Shown here one piece after another: positions 33,650-56,091 of a stretch of DNA of 56,471 nucleotides. The first letter of the stretch is position 1. Every line of letters begins with the position of its first letter. The translations under genes were made by a program, and so were the position numbers. Source of the stretch: Candidatus Adlerbacteria bacterium. GTDB lineage: Bacteria; Patescibacteriota; Minisyncoccia; Phycocordibacterales; SBAW01. The DNA lies in assembly GCA_029288895.1 (NCBI GenBank), contig JARIGK010000004.1, positions 241,866 to 298,336 of the forward strand, written 5' to 3'. Under the pieces are notes generated by a model, which saw only the letters and a program-made list of their open reading frames with translations, was not told the origin of the DNA and ran no database searches.

Positions 33650-34027
33650 GTGCCTGATGCTCAATCTGCTCCCTCTCTTGTGGAGAGGGCCCGCACCTAT
33701 GTTGGCCTCAAAGGCCTGCCCACCGACGCATTTAATGCGGTCGTTGCCTTGAACCTGCAGGTCGAGATACCTGCTATGTGGCCGCGCATAAAGAAGGCGA
33801 GGACCTACTCGGAATACATGTTCGAGAAGTTTGATCGAGATAGAGACATGGCCGACGCCGTCCTGGTTGAAACCAATAAGGACAAGGTGAAGAGTTTTGA
33901 CGCCATCGTCGGCAAAATCAATCTCGTGATCGCCGGCGGCGTGACGACGCAGTCACAGGCCGAGGCAATCGATGTCCTGCTCGACGAAATGGCCATGCTC
34001 ATCTACGGACGGCCTCGAAGCCGATAA
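33650..34027 (+). CDS. hypothetical protein (125 aa, GTG start)
   Basis: SD GAAGGAGA lies 6 nt upstream of the GTG, and a terminator follows. No family recognised. Confidence 0.5.
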   Translation: MPDAQSAPSLVERARTYVGLKGLPTDAFNAVVALNLQVEIPAMWPRIKKARTYSEYMFEKFDRDRDMADAVLVETNKDKVKSFDAIVGKINLVIAGGVTTQSQAEAIDVLLDEMAMLIYGRPRSR

Positions 34028-34031
34028 ACGC

Positions 34032-34070
34032 AAACGCCCCGCCGGGTTTCTCCAGCGAGGCGTTTTTCTT
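34032..34070. terminator. imperfect hairpin plus T-run between the convergent genes
   Basis: aaacgcccc..ggggcgttttt ctttt. Confidence 0.55.
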
Positions 34071-34087
34071 TTGCGTTTTTGTGAGAA

Positions 34088-35182
34088 TTACTTCTTGTCG
34101 CCGGCGAATGCGAGAGCCATGCGCATCTCCTTCGGGTCAAAGAGGGAAATAGTGAATGGGTAGCGCTTGCCGAGTTCGAGTGTGCCGCGGAGTTTGTCTT
34201 CGCCGCCGAACTCAGAGACGTGTACCAAGCCCGCGATGCCTTCTTCGATAGAAGCCAATGCGCCGTGCTTGTTAAATTTGATGACAACGCCTTCGACGCG
34301 GTCGCCCTTCTTGTACTTGTCTGCCGATTCCATCCATGGGTTAGCCTTGAGTGCCTTAACCGAGAGAGAAATCTTCCCTTCCTTAATATCGATAATTTTG
34401 ACGCGAACCTGATCGCCAACTTTGAAGAAGTGGCGAGGGTCGTCAACGAGGCCCCAGTCGATTTCCGAGATGTGGACCAAGCCTTCCAACCCTTCCTGCA
34501 ACTTCACGAAGACACCAAAGTCCACCATACCGGTAACTTCGCCGTCTGCGACATCGCCAACTTGGTAGTTTGCGATAAGTTCTTTCTTCTCTTTATCATC
34601 AGCACCCTTTTCCGAGAAGATAAGTTTACCTTCCTTCGGGATTGCTGAAATAAGCGAGACAGCAAGCTTCTGGCCTACCAATTTGCGGAGCTCGTCCAAG
34701 ATCTTGTCCTTGTCGGCATCAGCAACGCGAGGGTAGTGCTCGGCTTTAAGCTGCGATGCAGGGAGGAAGCCCGCGATGCCCTGCCATTCCAAGATAAGGC
34801 CGCCCTTGTTTGCTTCTTTGACTGCAAGTTCGAACTGAGTTTTGTTTTTAACTGCATCTTCTGCCTCGGCCCAGATGATAGCCTGGCGTGCTTCCTTAAG
34901 CGAAAGCTCGATGTAGCCGTCCTTGGTGTCTGTGGAGATGACCTTTGCCTGGACGGTGTCGCCAATGTTGACGCGCTTGATCACTTCGCGCGCGTTCATG
35001 TACTCGCGGCCAAAGATGACGCCGGTACCAAACGGAGGCAAGTCGATGTAGAGGCGTGCGCGGTCGAGCGCCAATACGGTGCCTTCAATAATATCGCCGT
35101 CCTTCGGAGGCATTTGTGCCTGCTCGGCGAACATCGCCATTACAGACGAGGGGATAGAACCTTCTTCGAGTTTCTCTGCCAT
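34088..35182 (-). CDS. rpsA: 30S ribosomal protein S1 (4 S1 domains)
   Basis: Repeated S1 OB-fold pattern (G..V.G.V....RLYIDL, GDVADGEVTGMVDFGVFVKL, GDRVEGVVIKFNKHGALASI). Confidence 0.9.
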   Translation of the reverse strand: MAEKLEEGSIPSSVMAMFAEQAQMPPKDGDIIEGTVLALDRARLYIDLPPFGTGVIFGREYMNAREVIKRVNIGDTVQAKVISTDTKDGYIELSLKEARQAIIWAEAEDAVKNKTQFELAVKEANKGGLILEWQGIAGFLPASQLKAEHYPRVADADKDKILDELRKLVGQKLAVSLISAIPKEGKLIFSEKGADDKEKKELIANYQVGDVADGEVTGMVDFGVFVKLQEGLEGLVHISEIDWGLVDDPRHFFKVGDQVRVKIIDIKEGKISLSVKALKANPWMESADKYKKGDRVEGVVIKFNKHGALASIEEGIAGLVHVSEFGGEDKLRGTLELGKRYPFTISLFDPKEMRMALAFAGDKK

Positions 35183-35289
35183 AAACTACTATTTAATTGT
35201 CAGGTGAGTCCTCCGCATACGGCCAGCAGAGATTAATCTCACCCTCGCTAATAAAAAGCCAAATAATAAGGCGCTTTCTATTGCCGCAC

Positions 35290-35318
35290 ACTATATATAA
35301 AAAGAGAGGATTTAGCAA
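35290..35318 (-). promoter_or_regulatory. candidate rpsA promoter TTGCTA-17-TATAGT (leader of roughly 100 nt)
   Basis: The minus strand reads ttgctaaatcctctctttttatatatagt. Confidence 0.5.
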
Positions 35319-35333
35319 GGATATAAAGTAGAA

Positions 35334-35355
35334 CCCCTGCCAGTAAAGGCAGGGG
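35334..35355 (-). terminator. terminator of island unit c
   Basis: cccctgcc-agtaaa-ggcagggg. On the minus strand it is followed by ttctacttta. Confidence 0.6.
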
Positions 35356-35565
35356 CGGGTTAGAGAAACGGGACCGGCGGTTAGCGCCAGTGGTGAAGGG
35401 GTCAGCGAGGCTTGGGACGACGCTGATGTCTCGGTCGATCTCGGAGGGCTACTCCGTTCAGCCAGCCGGTAGGCTTAGATCTCTTTGACGAACGCGCGTT
35501 TCATCGGCATCTCCCTAAAATGGTTGATGATCTGGTGACACATGCATCCGGAGTACCGGGGCCAC
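35356..35565 (-). ncRNA. island unit c: a short transcript with a 9-codon ORF (complement 35475..35504, MKRAFVKEI) followed by ~120 nt of GC-rich sequence with no ORF
   Basis: Bounded by promoter TTGCAT-16-TATTGT and the hairpin at 35334. SD GGGAGA lies 5 nt before the ATG. No ATG/GTG/TTG-initiated ORF is seen between the TAA and the terminator. Confidence 0.35.
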
Positions 35566-35571
35566 GCCTCA

Positions 35572-35599
35572 ACAATAGCAAGGCGCGCAATCCATGCAA
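35572..35599 (-). promoter_or_regulatory. promoter of unit c, TTGCAT-16-TATTGT
   Basis: The minus strand reads ttgcatggattgcgcgccttgctattgt. Confidence 0.45.
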
Positions 35600-35621
35600 G
35601 AGCTTGAAGGTGGAAAAAGAA

Positions 35622-35647
35622 AAGCCCGCGTCATAAAGACGGGGCTT
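35622..35647 (-). terminator. rho-independent terminator of unit b
   Basis: aagccc(g)cgtc-ataaa-gacggggctt. On the minus strand it is followed by tctttttcc. Confidence 0.7.
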
Positions 35648-35670
35648 AAGTGCGGCAGGGGTGCCGAGGG

Positions 35671-35838
35671 TCAGGCAGCCTCTTGCATCTGTTGCTGATG
35701 CTCAGCGCTGTAGCGCTCCTTCTGCTGCTGTTGCCACAGTGGCCTCGGCGCCGGCGGCCGTTTCGCTGCTGCGCCACCAGGCTTTTTGGGGTCCGGTTCG
35801 TCGAACCGCGAAGCAGCCATGCTGTCGTGATCGTCCAA
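35671..35838 (-). CDS. island unit b: 55-aa hydrophilic Pro/Gln/Ala-rich protein (TTG start; 49 aa if the ATG at 35820 is used)
   Basis: SD GAAGGAGA lies 7 nt before the TTG. (M)DDHDSMAASRFDEPDPKKPGGAAAKRPPAPRPLWQQQQKERYSAEHQQQMQEAA. It has its own promoter and terminator. Confidence 0.5.
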   Translation of the reverse strand: MDDHDSMAASRFDEPDPKKPGGAAAKRPPAPRPLWQQQQKERYSAEHQQQMQEAA

Positions 35839-35872
35839 TGTGCTATCTCCTTCAAAAAATGACGAGACAGAC

Positions 35873-35901
35873 ACTATACTCGACTCGATTTTCGTGGTCA
35901 A
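35873..35901 (-). promoter_or_regulatory. promoter of unit b, TTGACC-17-TATAGT
   Basis: The minus strand reads ttgaccacgaaaatcgagtcgagtatagt. Confidence 0.6.
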
Positions 35902-35930
35902 GCTGAGCCAAGAATTCATAAAAAGCAGAA

Positions 35931-35961
35931 CCCCCTCGCAAGACCGAAGTCTTGGAGGGGG
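35931..35961 (-). terminator. rho-independent terminator of unit a
   Basis: ccccctc(g)caagac-cgaa-gtcttggaggggg. On the minus strand it is followed by ttctgcttttt. Confidence 0.75.
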
Positions 35962-35997
35962 CGGTTGGCCGGCGTTAGCCGACACAGGGGTTGAAGA

Positions 35998-36147
35998 TCA
36001 GGCGATCGCGCCGGCCGCCACCGCGACGGTGGTGCCCAGCACGCCGGCGCCGAAGTGCGCGCGGCCGACCTGGTCGTACTTGGAGCCCAGAACTTTCAAA
36101 CTCTTGCCGACGAACTGCGGCGGGCCGTGGAAGGAACGACGGTTCAT
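35998..36147 (-). CDS. island unit a: 49-aa peptide with a basic N-terminus and a Gly/Ala-zipper hydrophobic C-terminus
   Basis: Hand translation: MNRRSFHGPPQFVGKSLKVLGSKYDQVGRAHFGAGVLGTTVAVAAGAIA. SD GGAGG lies 5 nt before the ATG. Third codon positions are almost all G/C. It is below the 60-aa cutoff of the ORF track. Confidence 0.55.
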   Translation of the reverse strand: MNRRSFHGPPQFVGKSLKVLGSKYDQVGRAHFGAGVLGTTVAVAAGAIA

Positions 36148-36191
36148 GAGAACCTCCATGTGTGCCACGCGGGAATGCGTGAGCGCTTAAA

Positions 36192-36219
36192 ATATTACAC
36201 GCCCCAACTTTGGCGTCAA
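36192..36219 (-). promoter_or_regulatory. promoter of unit a, TTGACG-16-TAATAT
   Basis: The minus strand reads ttgacgccaaagttggggcgtgtaatat. Confidence 0.55.
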
Positions 36220-36277
36220 GTCAAGCTCTGGGGGCAGGGAAATAAGCCCCAAATTGCTGCATTTTTAGCTCAGTTCG

Positions 36278-36286
36278 TGATATAAT
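36278..36286 (+). promoter_or_regulatory. extended -10 TGaTATAAT, 8 nt before ATG 36295
   Basis: TGaTATAATagaggtatATG. Confidence 0.6.
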
Positions 36287-36294
36287 AGAGGTAT

Positions 36295-36915
36295 ATGGTC
36301 ATCAGCTACTTTGGCGGTGAGTGTTTTAAAATTTCTCAAGGCGATTTGACCTTGGCATTCAACCTCCCATCAAAAAACTCAAAACAAAAGAGCGTTAAGT
36401 TCGGCTCGGACATCGTGCTTGTCTCCCAAGACCATGAAGACTTCAACGGCATCGAAAGTGCGAGCTTCGGCGAGCGTGCGCCGTTTGTTATCAAAGGCCC
36501 GGGCGAGTACGAAGTAAAAGAAGTTGCTGTCCGCGGCTTTGGCTCGGAAACCAACTACGGCGGTGGCGCACACATCAATACTATTTATGGTGTGGCATTT
36601 GAAGGGATGAACTTGTGCTTCTTGGGCTCGCTTGGCACCACAGAACTGCCCGCATCTGCCAAGCAAGAGCTCGATAATATCGACATTCTCTTTTTGCCGA
36701 TTGGCGGCGAGGGTGTATTGGACTACTCGGCGGCCTACAAATTGGCCGTACAGCTCGAACCAAAGGCTATTATCCCAATGCACTATGACGCTGGCGCACT
36801 CAAATCATTTTTGAAGGAAGCGGGCGCAGAAAAAGTCGAGCCGATTGAAAAGCTCACGGTCAAGAAAAAAGATTTGGAGGGCAAAGAGGCTGAGATCGTC
36901 GTCCTTTCTGCATAA
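36295..36915 (+). CDS. MBL-fold metal-dependent hydrolase (UPF0173-like)
   Basis: ISYFGGECFKI, DIVLVSQDHEDFNG, LFLPIGGEGVLD, AIIPMHYD. Confidence 0.75.
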   Translation: MVISYFGGECFKISQGDLTLAFNLPSKNSKQKSVKFGSDIVLVSQDHEDFNGIESASFGERAPFVIKGPGEYEVKEVAVRGFGSETNYGGGAHINTIYGVAFEGMNLCFLGSLGTTELPASAKQELDNIDILFLPIGGEGVLDYSAAYKLAVQLEPKAIIPMHYDAGALKSFLKEAGAEKVEPIEKLTVKKKDLEGKEAEIVVLSA

Positions 36916-36916
36916 T

Positions 36917-37240
36917 ATGATCAAGCGTTACCTAAACCACGTTCGTTCCAAACAGCCGCATCACCGCCGCCAGCACGCAGCACAGGTCGCAGGCGTGCTC
37001 ACAATAGTGGCGTTTGTTATTTGGATCACGACGCTGCCATTGCGCTTTGGCGGCACAGGGCAGGTTGCGGGTGCGGCAGACAGCTTGAACGCGTCTGACA
37101 ACCAAACCATGCTTGCTGGTGCTGCGGGCCGCGATTATGCGAATAGCACGGACGGCACAACAGACGACGGCAGCGGCGTCCAGGTTGTGGGCACGAGCAC
37201 GGCGGGTGATACTACCTCGAGCCAATTCAGTAATTACTAA
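36917..37240 (+). CDS. hypothetical membrane-anchored protein (107 aa)
   Basis: Start moved to ATG 36917, 1 nt after the upstream stop. TM helix VAGVLTIVAFVIWITTL and a low-complexity tail. Confidence 0.5.
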   Translation: MIKRYLNHVRSKQPHHRRQHAAQVAGVLTIVAFVIWITTLPLRFGGTGQVAGAADSLNASDNQTMLAGAAGRDYANSTDGTTDDGSGVQVVGTSTAGDTTSSQFSNY

Positions 37241-37249
37241 ACGACGTAT

Positions 37250-39706
37250 ATGGCAGACGAAGAAACAAACAAAAGTGAAAAGGGCATCGTTGCACGCAAC
37301 ATCTCGGCAGAAATGCGCGAGGCGTACTTGGACTACGCGATGTCTGTCATCACGTCGCGCGCCTTGCCTGACGTCCGCGACGGCTTGAAGCCTGTGCACC
37401 GCCGCATCCTCTACACCATGCACCGCCTCGGTCTTTCGCCGGGCAGCCGCTTCCGCAAATCGGCATTGGTGGTCGGTGACGTGCTTGGTAAGTACCACCC
37501 GCACGGCGATGTTGCCGTGTACGACGCGATGGTAAAAATGGCGCAGGACTTTTCGATGCGCTACCCGCTGATTTTGGGCCAAGGTAACTTTGGTTCTATC
37601 GACGGCGACGGCGCCGCTGCTATGCGCTACACCGAAGCCAAGATGTCGCGCGTGTCCGAACTCCTTTTGACTGACTTGGAGAAGGACACGGTCAACTGGC
37701 GCCCCAACTACGACGCAACCTTGCAAGAGCCGGAAGTCTTGCCTGCAGCCGTGCCCAACATTTTGCTTAACGGTACGCTCGGCATCGCCGTGGGTATGGC
37801 AACGTCCATCCCGCCGCACAACCTCACCGAGGTAACGAACGCGCTCACACATTTGATTGAAAACCCCGACGCCACCACCGAGGATTTGATGGAGTTTATC
37901 TCGGGCCCCGACTTCCCAACAGGCGCAATCGCATTTAACAAAAAAGATTTGTTGCACGCGTATTCGACAGGCAAGGGCGGCGTTGTTACGCGCGGCCATG
38001 CAGAAATTGTCGAAGGCAAAAAAGGCGATTTCCAGATTGTCATTACGTCTATTCCGTACCGCGTCAACAAAGCCGACCTTATTATGCGCATGGCCGACTT
38101 GGTCCGCGACAAAAAATTGGAAGGTATCCGCGGCTTGCGCGACGAATCAACCAAAGACATCCGCATCGTTGTCGAGTTGAAGGGCGGCGCACACCCGCAA
38201 AAGGTGTTGAACTATTTGTACAAGCACACAGCGCTCGAAGATACGTTCCACTTCAACATGGTCGTGCTTGCAGATGGCGTGCCGCAGACGATGTCTCTCA
38301 AGGGCATCTTGGAGGAGTTCATCAAGCACCGCCGCGAGGTTGTGAAGCGCCGCACCGAGTTTGATTTGAAGAAGGCGCAAGAACGCGAGCACATTTTGCT
38401 CGGTCTCACCAAGGCGCTCGACCATATCGACGAGGTTATTAAAGTCATCCGTGCATCAAAGGATGTTAACGAGGCAGAAGTAAACCTCATCAAGAAATTT
38501 AAATTTACCGAAATCCAGGCAAAGGCAATTTTGGAAATGCGCCTGTCGCGCTTGGCAAACCTCGAGCGCAAGAAAGTCGAAGATGAGTTGGACGAGGTCC
38601 AGGCTCGCATCAAAGAGTGGACGGCACTCCTCGGGAGCGACAAGAAGATGCTTGGCGTCGTGAAGGATGAAATTGCTGCAGCGCAGCAGCGCTTTGCCGA
38701 TGACCGAAAAACTAAAGTGATGAAGGGTGCCGCAGGCATCATCAATGTCGAAGACTTGGTTGCCGACGAAGAGCAGGTCTTGGTGCTTACCGCGGGCGGC
38801 TACGTCAAACGCACCAACCCAGAAGAGTACCGCCGTCAGAAGCGCGGTGGCGTGGGTGTGATTGACCTCAATACCAAAGAAGAAGACTTTGTGACGACGT
38901 TCCTTACGACGTCGACGCACTCGGACCTCCTCTTCTTCTCTGACTTGGGCAAAGCGTACCAAATCAAGATGTACGACATCCCAGAAGGCAAACGCTCAAC
39001 AAAAGGCAAGGCGGTGGTGAACTTCCTTTCTATTACCGATGCAGAGAAGATCTCGTCGGTGTTGCCGATGCGCAAAACGCAGAAGGAAGGCGAACGCTTC
39101 CTTTATATGATCACCAAACAAGGTGTTGCCAAGAAAGTTGATGCAATATCGTTCCACGATGTGCGCCGCAACGGCCTCCTTGCAATCAAACTCCAGAAGG
39201 GCGATGAGCTTATCGCAGCATTGTTGGTAGAGAAGGGGGATGAAATCTTCCTCTCGTCTGCAAAGGGCCAGAGCATCCGCTTTAAAGAAGGCGACATCCG
39301 CCCAATGGGCCGCGCTGCAGGCGGCGTCCGCGCGATGAAATTGGGTGCAGGCGACGTCATTGTCGGCGCCGATGTGATACCGAAGGGTGCCAAAGGCATC
39401 GAAGTGCTTGTCGTCTCAAAGAACGGCTACGGTAAAGCTACAGAAATTGGCGAGTACAAAGTACAGAACCGCGGCGGCTCGGGCATCAAGACCATGCAGA
39501 TCACGACCAAGACCGGCCCGCTGATTACCTCGCGCCTCATCAACCGCGGCGAAGGTGGCGAAGAAGAAATCGTCGTCATCTCCAAAAAAGGCCAGGTCAT
39601 CCGCACAGGCCTCGATGAAATCAAAACCCAATCTCGCTCCACCCAAGGCGTCCGCATCATGAAACTCCGCGACGCCGACGCAATCGCCAGCTTCGTGTGT
39701 CTCTAA
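37250..39706 (+). CDS. gyrA: DNA gyrase subunit A
   Basis: [34 protein letters not shown]-terminal beta-pinwheel repeats. There is no gyrB in the window. Confidence 0.97.
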
Positions 39707-40362: not shown

Positions 40363-40413
40363 TTTCGAGGACCGTCCTTGATATACAGAGGAGCCTTGAT
40401 TCTTTTTGGGATG

Positions 40414-40434
40414 CGTAGTTAAGTTGTGGAGGAA
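40414..40434 (+). repeat. 21-nt leader repeat, copy 1 (cgtagttaagttgtggaggaa)
   Basis: Identical to 40754..40774, exactly 340 nt downstream. It contains a -10-like TTAAGT and an SD GGAGG. Confidence 0.9.
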
Positions 40435-40446
40435 AGGAAGGTTCTC

Positions 40447-40701
40447 GTGCTAAATAAAATCCTTCAGGCGCGTGGTGTCGAGGCAGCGCGGTACGCTATA
40501 CGGTTCTCCTTAGTGGGGATACCGTGTGCAGTTGCCACAGCGGTGCTGGTGTGGCTCTACATACAAGGCAAATTTGTGGGGCTTGCCGCGGACATTCTCC
40601 TGTATGTCTGCGTATTTGCCACGGGCATTAGTTGTTCTTGTGCAGCTGTGCTCGGACTCGTGTGCGTGCATTTCGTGCGCGTTCCCGACAGACGGTACTA
40701 A
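40447..40701 (+). CDS. small membrane protein (84 aa, GTG start)
   Basis: SD-rich leader GGAGGAAAGGAAGG, then 5 nt, then GTG. TM helices IPCAVATAVLVWLYI and LLYVCVFATGISCSCAAVLGLVCV. Confidence 0.5.
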   Translation: MLNKILQARGVEAARYAIRFSLVGIPCAVATAVLVWLYIQGKFVGLAADILLYVCVFATGISCSCAAVLGLVCVHFVRVPDRRY

Positions 40702-40723
40702 AGCGGACTACCCATGTCCGTTT
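40701..40723 (+). terminator. rho-independent terminator of cassette 1
   Basis: aagcggac-tacccat-gtccgtttttt. Confidence 0.7.
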
Positions 40724-40753
40724 TTTCTTTTTCACTTGCGTGGTCTGGCAATA

Positions 40754-40774
40754 CGTAGTTAAGTTGTGGAGGAA
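40754..40774 (+). repeat. 21-nt leader repeat, copy 2
   Basis: cgtagttaagttgtggaggaa. Confidence 0.9.
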
Positions 40775-40786
40775 GGGGAGGGTTCG

Positions 40787-41059
40787 ATGATCGCGCGTGA
40801 TTCTAAGGTCGAGAAGGATTATCCGGCCTTCGCTCGGAATCCTTGGTTCTGGGGAGGAGTCCTTTTTGCCTTGGCGGCCGTGTATCTCTACTTTGGCAAC
40901 ACGGCCTGGATGGGCACGGTTACCCCGTGGGGCAAGACAGTCCCAGTTTGGAGAATCCTGCTCTCCATATCTGCGGGCTTCTCCATGATCTTTTTTGCTG
41001 CAACGTTCACTGACTTGATCGGCCCGGACGATACAAAAGCAATGAACGACAACCACTGA
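40787..41059 (+). CDS. small membrane protein (90 aa)
   Basis: SD GGGAGGG, then 4 nt, then ATG. TM helices WFWGGVLFALAAVYLYF and ILLSISAGFSMIFFAATF. Confidence 0.5.
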   Translation: MIARDSKVEKDYPAFARNPWFWGGVLFALAAVYLYFGNTAWMGTVTPWGKTVPVWRILLSISAGFSMIFFAATFTDLIGPDDTKAMNDNH

Positions 41060-41080
41060 AGCGGACCAGACGGCCCGCTT
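41059..41080 (+). terminator. rho-independent terminator of cassette 2
   Basis: aagcgg(a)cc-agac-gg(c)ccgctttttt. Confidence 0.7.
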
Positions 41081-41142
41081 TTTTCTTTCCAAAAATTTTT
41101 AAATTCATGTAAGAATCATCCACTATATGCGTTATATAGAGT

Positions 41143-56043: not shown

Positions 56044-56061
56044 AAAACTAGAATCTAAATC

Positions 56062-56091
56062 AAAACCCCTCCGGATATCCGGAGGGGTTTT
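56062..56091. terminator. bidirectional rho-independent terminator (clpB on the plus strand, tRNA-Tyr on the minus strand)
   Basis: aaaacccctccgg-atat-ccggaggggtttt. Confidence 0.85.

Follow-up and report, generated by a model that had tools for sequence, protein, structure and literature searches.

What occupies the 1.1 kb between rpsA and the gene for an MBL-fold (metallo-beta-lactamase) protein, here mbl, in a Candidatus Adlerbacteria-like genome of the Candidate Phyla Radiation (CPR), and is it foreign? The question is raised by a stretch of 56,471 nucleotides (the window), in which three consecutive units, a, b and c, lie inside this interval on the minus strand (35334-36219, the island). 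In a preliminary description they had been taken for a horizontally acquired cassette, possibly from a high-GC partner organism, with a toxin module among its candidate functions. The reading that we favour, with a probability of about 0.55, is that they are native, independently transcribed and mutually insulated small open reading frame (ORF) genes, situated in a lineage-wide, fast-evolving mbl-rpsA spacer of Adlerbacteria-like CPR bacteria. This reading draws on the expression signals in the island, the coding periodicity of ORF a, an architecture found across the clade and the absence of any foreign source in the collections searched.

The promoter scan, the Shine-Dalgarno (SD) energies and the folding of hairpins bore out the description of three tandem minus-strand units, each of which has a promoter, a strong SD in its leader, a short ORF and, at the end, an intrinsic terminator (Table 1). 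The ORFs of units a, b and c comprise 49, 55 and 9 codons, and each unit measures about 240-265 nt from promoter to terminator. The promoters of units a and b are near consensus, whereas this had been overstated for unit c. Promoter-like sites were over-represented around the island, with six in 34000-37500 versus 1.7 ± 1.2 in shuffled sequences, and four SD-led starts were counted on its minus strand versus 0.6 expected (Poisson estimate, p about 0.003), SD strength being the pairing energy with CCUCCU. The terminator hairpins, each followed by a U-rich tail, had z-scores of -3.5 to -4.8, and two of the three belong to the roughly nine strongest terminator-like sites of the window. The units are not diverged tandem copies, as their mutual similarity is limited to 17 nt in the terminator tails.

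Unit a carried the clearest coding signal. ORF a shows clear coding periodicity, with a GC content of 0.67/0.51/0.90 at the three codon positions (p = 5e-5, shuffling), and the earlier remark that its third positions are nearly all G/C was correct (third-position GC, GC3, 0.88-0.90). Its codon usage is native-like: under a codon model trained on the window's own genes it scored 0.35 per codon, with 50-codon chunks of real genes at 0.38 ± 0.23 and off-frame chunks at -0.37 ± 0.27. The predicted peptide is basic (net charge +5). Its N-terminus, MNRRSF, has no hydrophobic core and no signal sequence and leads into HGPP (MNRRSFHGPPQF...), which is listed among ribosome arrest motifs (PMC10987492, PMC12992588), and the C-terminal part is a Gly/Ala-rich hydrophobic stretch (FGAGVLGTTVAVAAGAI; Kyte-Doolittle 1.75 over the 17 residues 32-48). 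Upstream, the unit a promoter is preceded by an overlapping TTGAC and stands back-to-back with the leaderless mbl promoter. The databases hold ORF a as a called 49-aa protein, which is an orphan there: its search against metagenome contigs, 5.8 billion clustered proteins and 1.84 billion representatives returned its own sequence only, and exact-product look-ups of rpsA and ORF a yielded nothing.

The product of unit b was linked to relatives by a weak similarity. The hydrophilic peptide b is rich in Gln, Pro, Lys and Ala (...PPAPRPLWQQQQKERYSAEHQQQMQEAA), and its region carries no called gene in databases. In composition-preserving shuffles it resembled the unit 1 peptide of the related locus L004 (z 4.9, p 0.0005; related loci are denoted by L numbers), and also those of L054 (p 0.0045) and L002 (p 0.027). 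ORF b and the Gln-rich ORF of L004 can be aligned at their start codons (TTG and ATG, respectively), and the unit b promoter aligns with the first promoter of that locus, TTGACG...TATAGTGTCAGTC. We define here a Gln-rich spacer peptide family, comprising the first-unit ORFs of L002, L004 and L054, by three features: an SD-led start, location on the rpsA strand of the mbl-rpsA spacer and a C-terminal PPxRP...QQQ..ER....QQ pattern. All of these features are present in ORF b, which by sequence resemblance is assigned to this weakly conserved family. No candidate match to ORF b was retrieved from protein databases.

Unit c is the smallest of the three with respect to coding capacity, and its nine codons are followed by about 120 nt of untranslated RNA. 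A CTTGCATGgATT block of this unit could be aligned, at high posterior probability, with the promoter region of unit 2 in L004, where the -35 region of the unit c promoter is recognisable. At the equivalent position, L002 and L004 have SD-led ORFs of 55-57 codons, and unit c may be either a decayed or truncated copy or a mini-ORF/RNA unit.

The comparison with relatives placed the island in a spacer with the same layout across the clade. A protein search with rpsA retrieved metagenome-assembled genomes of Candidatus Adlerbacteria/Paceibacterota (best identity 91%), while a scan of metagenome contigs with the rpsA N-terminus found no strain-level relative (best 89%). The gene order gyrA-mbl<>rpsA-pth was conserved over 129 related loci, in which the mbl-rpsA spacer ranged from 143 to 2685 bp (median 750 bp). 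Its alignable DNA is confined to the two ends, namely the last 100-150 nt, with the rpsA promoter and leader, and the first ~100 nt, with the mbl -10 box and a first promoter of the TTGACA-17-TATAGT type. Units of promoter, SD, ORF and terminator were found on the rpsA strand in L001-L006, L054, L010, L016, L018 and many more loci, and in the closest relatives such a unit is repeated two or three times before the rpsA promoter is reached. The unit a promoter (TTGACTTGACG-16-TAATAT) is common to L001, L027 and L051, with the doubled TTGACTTGAC[A/G] -35 element at the same position in all three, and the L027 promoter is identical to that of unit a (TTGACG-16-TAATAT).

The spacer ORFs also share compositional properties as a class. 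The SD-led spacer ORFs of at least 40 codons (n = 73) had a GC content of 60.7% and a GC3 of 72.8%, compared with 53.1% for the loci, 66 of the 73 lying above that value; the GC3 of all spacer ORFs on either strand, taken as a control, was about 58%. SD-led starts numbered 207 on the rpsA strand of the spacers and 134 on the opposite strand. These class-wide GC3 and SD properties are therefore lineage traits of translated spacer ORFs and not the signature of one transfer. In an 80-aa secreted spacer ORF of relatives, differences by codon position were 10/12/32 and 18/11/38, a distribution that points clearly to protein-level selection on some of the relatives' spacer ORFs. The spacers of L005 (5590-5860) and L054 (5580-5870) are 74% identical, and the stem of the downstream terminator is kept in this pair by two compensatory changes (GGTGA/TCACC versus GGCGA/TCGCC). 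Separately, the spacers of L016, L018, L029, L034, L036 and L051 encode SD-led proteins of 120-200 aa with an N-terminal signal peptide and a conserved mid-sequence G-H-A-P-P-L-[IL] (or HGPPL), for which no Pfam match was obtained; these appear to be a secreted family that also contains a RAPP-like motif.

Translation initiation in the remainder of the window differs from that in the island. An SD reaching -7 kcal/mol or stronger was present in one of 34 long genes, ORF 33650-34027 being the sole long ORF with a strong SD, whereas a TATAAT-like box ended 5-15 nt before the start codon in 10 of the 34 (about 30%), and such core genes are therefore likely leaderless. In mbl, the TATAAT lies 8 nt before the ATG at 36295. 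The contrast drawn earlier between an SD-led island and leaderless native genes was thus upheld, in that core genes mostly have no SD and many are leaderless, though SD-led genes are not exclusive to the island: ORF 33650-34027 and tandem small membrane-protein genes at ~40413-41090 are likewise SD-led with terminators of their own. Intrinsic terminators occur throughout the window. Strong bidirectional terminator hairpins follow rpsA (34033-34065) and lie near the tRNA-Tyr gene (56059-56089), and intrinsic termination is therefore native to this genome.

Taken as native genes, the units would work as follows. The spacer holds 1-5 mutually insulated mini transcription units, in each of which a sigma70-type promoter and a leader of 35-65 nt carrying a strong SD precede a short ORF, and an intrinsic terminator closes the unit. 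SD sites would be present because the mini-genes have 5' leaders, unlike the leaderless core genes, and since the last terminator abuts the rpsA promoter, rpsA would be shielded from upstream transcription. The units would be expressed and their peptides would act as small proteins: a basic, possibly membrane-associated orphan of 49 aa, whose hydrophobic tail is rich in Gly and Ala, from unit a, and a presumably translated, hydrophilic, Gln/Pro-rich peptide of 55 aa from unit b, while unit c would keep its promoter, SD and terminator with an ORF of only 9 codons. We infer that His7-Gly-Pro-Pro10 of ORF a could pause ribosomes near the start codon and thereby occlude the ribosome-binding site, in which case the output of peptide a would depend on the speed at which the stall is resolved, e.g., by elongation factor P (EF-P).

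Several observations weigh against the units being native, conserved genes. The SD energies assume CCUCCU as the anti-SD, and there was no 16S rRNA gene among the sequences examined. A 49-codon ORF is unremarkable in DNA of 69% GC, and no homology was detectable between ORF a and the first-unit ORF of L001, which likewise encodes 49 aa. For ORF b, the codon score was ambiguous (0.07) and the GC3 excess not significant. The island interior had no significant DNA homology to any relative after the conserved flanks were removed, so that unit orthology rests on position, promoters and one peptide similarity. The arrest-type motif is labile, being absent from unit 1 of L001 and lost from L005, where a 15-nt indel relative to L054 removed HGPP. 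With regard to alignability, fourfold-degenerate rpsA sites differ at 36% between the window and L001, and weakly constrained sequence is therefore hard to align anyway. Long collinear nhmmer alignments to L004 and L001 had been considered as proof of orthology; they vanished without the conserved flanks, and local high-confidence blocks alone were used from them. Moreover, a phmmer search of ORF a against the spacer ORFs was not significant, and in a blastp clustering of all spacer ORFs those of the window joined no cluster.

The HGPP of ORF a belongs to a wider pattern, as SD-led spacer ORFs often carry a SecM/RAPP-class motif no more than 12 codons from the start. The first regular expression used here was written after the data had been seen, and the tests with a literature list fixed beforehand (RAGP, RGSP, RAPP, RGPP, RAPG, HGPP, HAPP, QAPP, TGPP, RDGP and RSPP; PMC10987492, PMC12992588) correct for this. 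Motifs numbered 55 in the three rpsA-strand spacer frames, compared with 30.2 ± 5.7 in shuffles and 30 on the other strand. Among unique SD-led ORFs, 11 of 177 had a motif in the first 25 residues versus 1.1 ± 1.0 expected from residue shuffling, and among SD-led ORFs of 6-60 codons the ratio was 11/191 versus 2/200 on the opposite spacer strand. Elsewhere in the 1.27 Mb of loci it was 18/4041, several of these matches actually lying upstream of rpsA on contigs in which no mbl was found, and the spacer enrichment was about 13-fold. In the core proteins of the window (11,780 residues), none of the published RAPP-like motifs occurred versus 1.25 expected. Motif ORFs of relatives included MKATRIRAGPIR-stop, MRNLIRAGP..., M[N/Q]HIR[D/E]GPGALPR-stop, MPHIREGP-stop, MRIRDGP-stop, MSYARDGP-stop, ...AIRGSP..., MAHFHGPP... 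and ...AIHGPP.... Synonymous codons are used within the motif (CGC, CGT, AGA or AGG for Arg; TCC or AGC for Ser), and the motif is therefore conserved at the peptide level. The enrichment hints at some form of stalling-based control. One candidate was set aside: RAPPDFVGRG of L004 looks like HGPPQFVGKS of ORF a but is encoded by a terminator hairpin, and the likeness was treated as a coincidence.

A recurrent form among these is an SD-led mini-ORF, M-x-x-I-R-[D/E]-G-P-stop, of 7-8 codons (or 13, ending in ...GPGALPR), conserved upstream of rpsA in many relatives (Table 1). It has a core similar to the IRAGP of SecM, its Arg is encoded by varying synonymous codons, and its Gly-Pro codons mark the start of a small hairpin, GGUCC-GUAA-GGAC; the window has no copy. 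The motif ORF of most relatives belongs to the unit directly before rpsA, at a distance of 227-330 nt, whereas in the window it is that of unit a, the first of three, 815 nt upstream.

The known RAPP-like/RQH arrest peptides comprise SecM (RAGP), SecM of Mannheimia (RGSP), ApdA/ApdP (RAPP) and the HAPP/HGPP/RDGP variants (PMC10987492, PMC12992588, PMC10951233). The spacer ORFs are like them in their motifs (HGPP in ORF a; RAGP, RDGP, REGP, RGSP, HGPP, HAPP and TGPP in relatives), and the motif ORFs are small and SD-led. In known members, the motif lies near the C-terminus of a "monitoring substrate", a secreted or membrane protein that shares an operon with the regulated gene (secA, secDF or yidC), the ribosome-binding site of which is exposed by the stall. 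In contrast, the spacer motif lies 3-12 residues past the start, often in ORFs of 7-26 codons with no N-terminal signal sequence, and the units end in their own terminators next to rpsA. As for ORF a, it contains a RAPP-like core motif, at residues 7-10 of 49 and not near the C-terminus of a signal or transmembrane protein, and it shares no transcript with a regulated gene, being followed by its own terminator and the unit b promoter, with no sec or yidC nearby. It fails in both placement and co-transcription and is therefore not a member of the RAPP-like (RQH) class, even if unit a may stall ribosomes by the same chemistry.

Early stalling is also a feature of regulatory leader peptides such as the Erm, Cat and Cml leaders, TnaC and SpeFL. 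Their ORFs are very short, SD-led and located upstream of another gene, and it is their translation that matters and not the product, a description that the relatives' M-x-x-I-R-[D/E]-G-P-stop ORFs fit. Such leaders sense a small-molecule ligand and regulate a gene that is co-transcribed with them, whereas the spacer units show no evident ligand or alternative RNA structure, and ORFs a and b are much longer.

These comparisons bear on the possibility that the spacer units are cis-regulatory devices and not protein genes, in which stalling on the SD-led ORFs would read the state of the translation machinery and tune transcription into rpsA by altering RNA folding, read-through or transcript stability. 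The enrichment of the motifs and their retention at the peptide level would be expected of such a sensor, as would the usual position of the M-x-x-I-R-[D/E]-G-P-stop ORF in the last unit before the rpsA start and the small hairpin at its Gly-Pro codons. In the window, however, two terminators separate the sole motif unit from rpsA, and unit c, which is next to rpsA, has no motif. Past the motif, ORF a still has 39 codons of good usage, which is not typical of a leader peptide; rpsA is served by a conserved promoter and a structured leader of its own; and no alternative antiterminator pairing was demonstrated. We consider this explanation doubtful. It is a similarly speculative proposal that the relatives' ORFs represent an undescribed class of very short SD-led ORFs just upstream of the S1 gene, with the consensus M-x-x-I-R-[A/D/E]-G-P-stop and HGPP/RGSP variants, which would use SecM/RAPP-type stalling in the adjustment of S1. 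If such a class exists, stalling within the first dozen codons, with no secretion signal, would report the availability of EF-P, prolyl-tRNA or ribosomes, S1 synthesis would be adjusted via terminator read-through or transcript fate, and unit a would be a longer, diverged member.

The units could alternatively be genes for small non-coding RNAs (sRNAs), with incidental ORFs and SD-like sequences, an explanation that is most plausible for unit c. Each unit has a promoter and terminator of its own, the RNAs of units a and c fold better than shuffled sequences (z -3.1 and -2.2), the nine codons of ORF c occupy little of its transcript, and the codon score of ORF b leaves its coding status ambiguous. 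The strong 3-nt periodicity and native-like codon usage of ORF a are not expected of an sRNA, nor is the GC3 of the SD-led spacer ORFs as a class (73% versus 58% for other ORFs). The unit b RNA folds no better than shuffles (z -1.2), and there were no alignable homologues. The Rfam searches gave no match in favour of sRNA genes either, and no known structured RNA was found that would explain the hairpins: with Rfam 15 the window contained only tRNAs at the gathering score, the best result at E<=10 in 35100-36400 was mmgR (E = 0.19), lying on terminator b, and 11 related loci yielded nothing. Overall, sRNA genes are an unlikely account of the island.

Decaying or neutral DNA, with degenerating gene fragments, duplicated promoters and terminators and functionless ORFs, would account for the extreme sequence turnover, the truncated appearance of unit c in comparison to L002 and L004 and the coming and going of motifs between close relatives; the content also seems dispensable, as some relatives have spacers of only 143-200 bp. 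Against neutrality, promoters, SD-start pairs and terminators are maintained, the latter through compensatory changes, the strong GC3 bias of SD-led ORFs is not kept by neutral DNA, and SD-led starts are more numerous on the rpsA strand. A variant, in which the island is the remnant of a type I toxin-antitoxin system, overlaps with the toxin-module idea of the preliminary description. ORF a is indeed small and basic with a hydrophobic segment, like small membrane toxins. Unlike in those systems, neither an antisense nor an overlapping RNA gene is present, the hydrophobicity of the segment is borderline, and peptides a and b had no matches in Pfam, PADLOC or PHROGs. The opposite strand of the island holds a weak promoter-like site (35851-35880) and a hairpin (35742-35782), which are in the wrong order for a unit. 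The toxin idea found no support, and decay as a whole, its variant included, is distinctly unlikely.

The composition of the island had been among the arguments for a foreign origin. With 59.4% GC versus a window mean of 52.6% (standard deviation 2.3), the island ranks top of 5,500 windows of 886 bp (+2.9 standard deviations), whereas by tetranucleotide distance it does not stand out (17th percentile from the top). Neither repeats nor a tRNA gene, mobility genes or an integrase were found flanking it, and a blastn search of the island against phages and plasmids gave only a 56-nt chance match in Azospirillum. A horizontally acquired, GC-rich cassette, e.g., from a high-GC host or partner, would agree with this GC peak, the GC3 of 0.9 in ORF a, the SD-led design that differs from core genes and the unalignable interior, and it is very unlikely given that the same architecture, first promoter, GC3 and SD properties are present at this syntenic site across the clade, that ORF a fits the host in codon usage, and that no donor or homologue was detected in protein collections, metagenome contigs, phages or plasmids. 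From the earlier interpretation, the autonomous mini transcription units, the translated appearance of unit a and the SD-led design within an SD-less or leaderless core were retained; the foreign cassette was not.

If they are native small genes, the units represent a known general type of gene, arranged across the clade in an unusual way and with a statistically supported enrichment of arrest motifs, and the peptide sequences are new. For mycobacteria (PMC4633059), leaderless core genes are described beside many short, poorly conserved ORFs missed by annotation; SD-led small-protein genes within a leaderless-dominated genome are like that landscape and differ from it in that the small ORFs are concentrated in one syntenic hotspot, where strong promoters and terminators insulate them. 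Small ORFs are routinely missed in the tiny, poorly understood genomes of CPR/Patescibacteria, as illustrated here by ORF b, never called, and the orphan ORF a. Lineage-specific functions, possibly related to the host or the envelope, could be sought in the rpsA-adjacent hotspot. Two initiation modes would operate in one genome, with leaderless core genes and SD-led accessory mini-genes, and arrest motifs near N-termini, if functional, would bring arrest-peptide biology to CPR bacteria and to ORFs other than secretion-monitoring substrates. For annotators, GC-rich, SD-led, unalignable sequence is not by itself evidence of horizontal transfer.

Table 1. Positions of the island units, their flanking genes and the mini-ORFs of related loci (window coordinates unless indicated; energies of SD sites refer to pairing with CCUCCU)
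Feature	Position	Strand	Details
rpsA	34088-35182	minus	at least 3 S1 domains
rpsA 5' untranslated region, structured	35194-35285	minus	core helix 35203-35246; conserved, compensatory changes
rpsA promoter	35290-35318	minus	TTGCTA-17-TATAGT; promoter scan; conserved across relatives
Unit c intrinsic terminator	35322-35356	minus	-20.1 kcal/mol, z -4.0; abuts -35 box of rpsA promoter
ORF c	35475-35504	minus	9 aa, MKRAFVKEI; too short for codon score
Unit c SD	35510-35515	minus	GGGAGA; -7.1 kcal/mol
Unit c promoter	35572-35599	minus	TTGCAT-16-TATTGT; weak, 7/12; read from sequence
Unit b intrinsic terminator	35612-35646	minus	hairpin and U-tract; -15.9 kcal/mol, z -4.8
ORF b	35671-35838	minus	55 aa from TTG 35838 (or 49 aa from ATG 35820), ending 35671
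Unit b SD	35846-35853	minus	GAAGGAGA; -7.1 kcal/mol
Unit b promoter	35873-35901	minus	TTGACC-17-TATAGT; promoter scan, 10/12
Unit a intrinsic terminator	35920-35962	minus	hairpin and UUCUGCUUUUU; -27.1 kcal/mol, z -3.5
ORF a	35998-36147	minus	49 aa, ATG at 36147; MNRRSFHGPPQFVGKSLKVLGSKYDQVGRAHFGAGVLGTTVAVAAGAIA
HGPP, codons 7-10 of ORF a	36118-36129	minus	RAPP-like ribosome-stalling motif, read from sequence
Unit a SD	36153-36157	minus	GGAGG; -8.8 kcal/mol; 5 nt before ATG
Unit a promoter	36192-36219	minus	TTGACG-16-TAATAT; promoter scan, 9/12 consensus matches
mbl (MBL-fold gene)	36295-36915	plus	Lactamase_B_3
Mini-ORF M-x-x-I-R-[D/E]-G-P-stop	L099:209-235; L115:917-943; L105:~1087-1110; L037:522-548		spacer coordinates
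Mini-ORF M-x-x-I-R-[D/E]-G-P-stop	L125 ~795; L140 ~885		locus coordinates; also in L039, L103, L113

Next to the island, the 5' untranslated region of rpsA is itself structured, with compensatory (double) changes at 10 of 11 predicted pairs in 36 sequences; one pair is GC in 11 sequences, AU in 11 and UA in 10. In order, the leader consists of a AAUAAAGGG...CCUUUAUU hairpin, a helix enclosing a GAGUAA bulge and a variable hairpin, UACAA and the start codon. It had no match in Rfam and is a candidate S1 autoregulatory leader for Paceibacteria.

On the other side of rpsA, the 125-aa ORF 33650-34027 (plus strand) is situated between pth and the rpsA terminator and has a strong SD (GAAGGAGA) and a GC3 of 0.67. 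Matches in Pfam, PADLOC and PHROG were absent, and a relative is encoded in L003 only (42% identity). Its site looks like a second variable accessory slot flanking rpsA.

The tandem genes at ~40413-41090 (plus strand) encode paralogous membrane proteins of about 85-90 aa each. The leader (G/A)CGTAGTTAAGTTGTGGAGGAA, with a strong SD, is repeated before both, and each gene ends in a terminator of its own (near 40723 and 41081). The second of the two genes has a weak match to DUF7860 (E 0.0013), and a longest-ORF call on the other strand, 40628-41092, is probably spurious.

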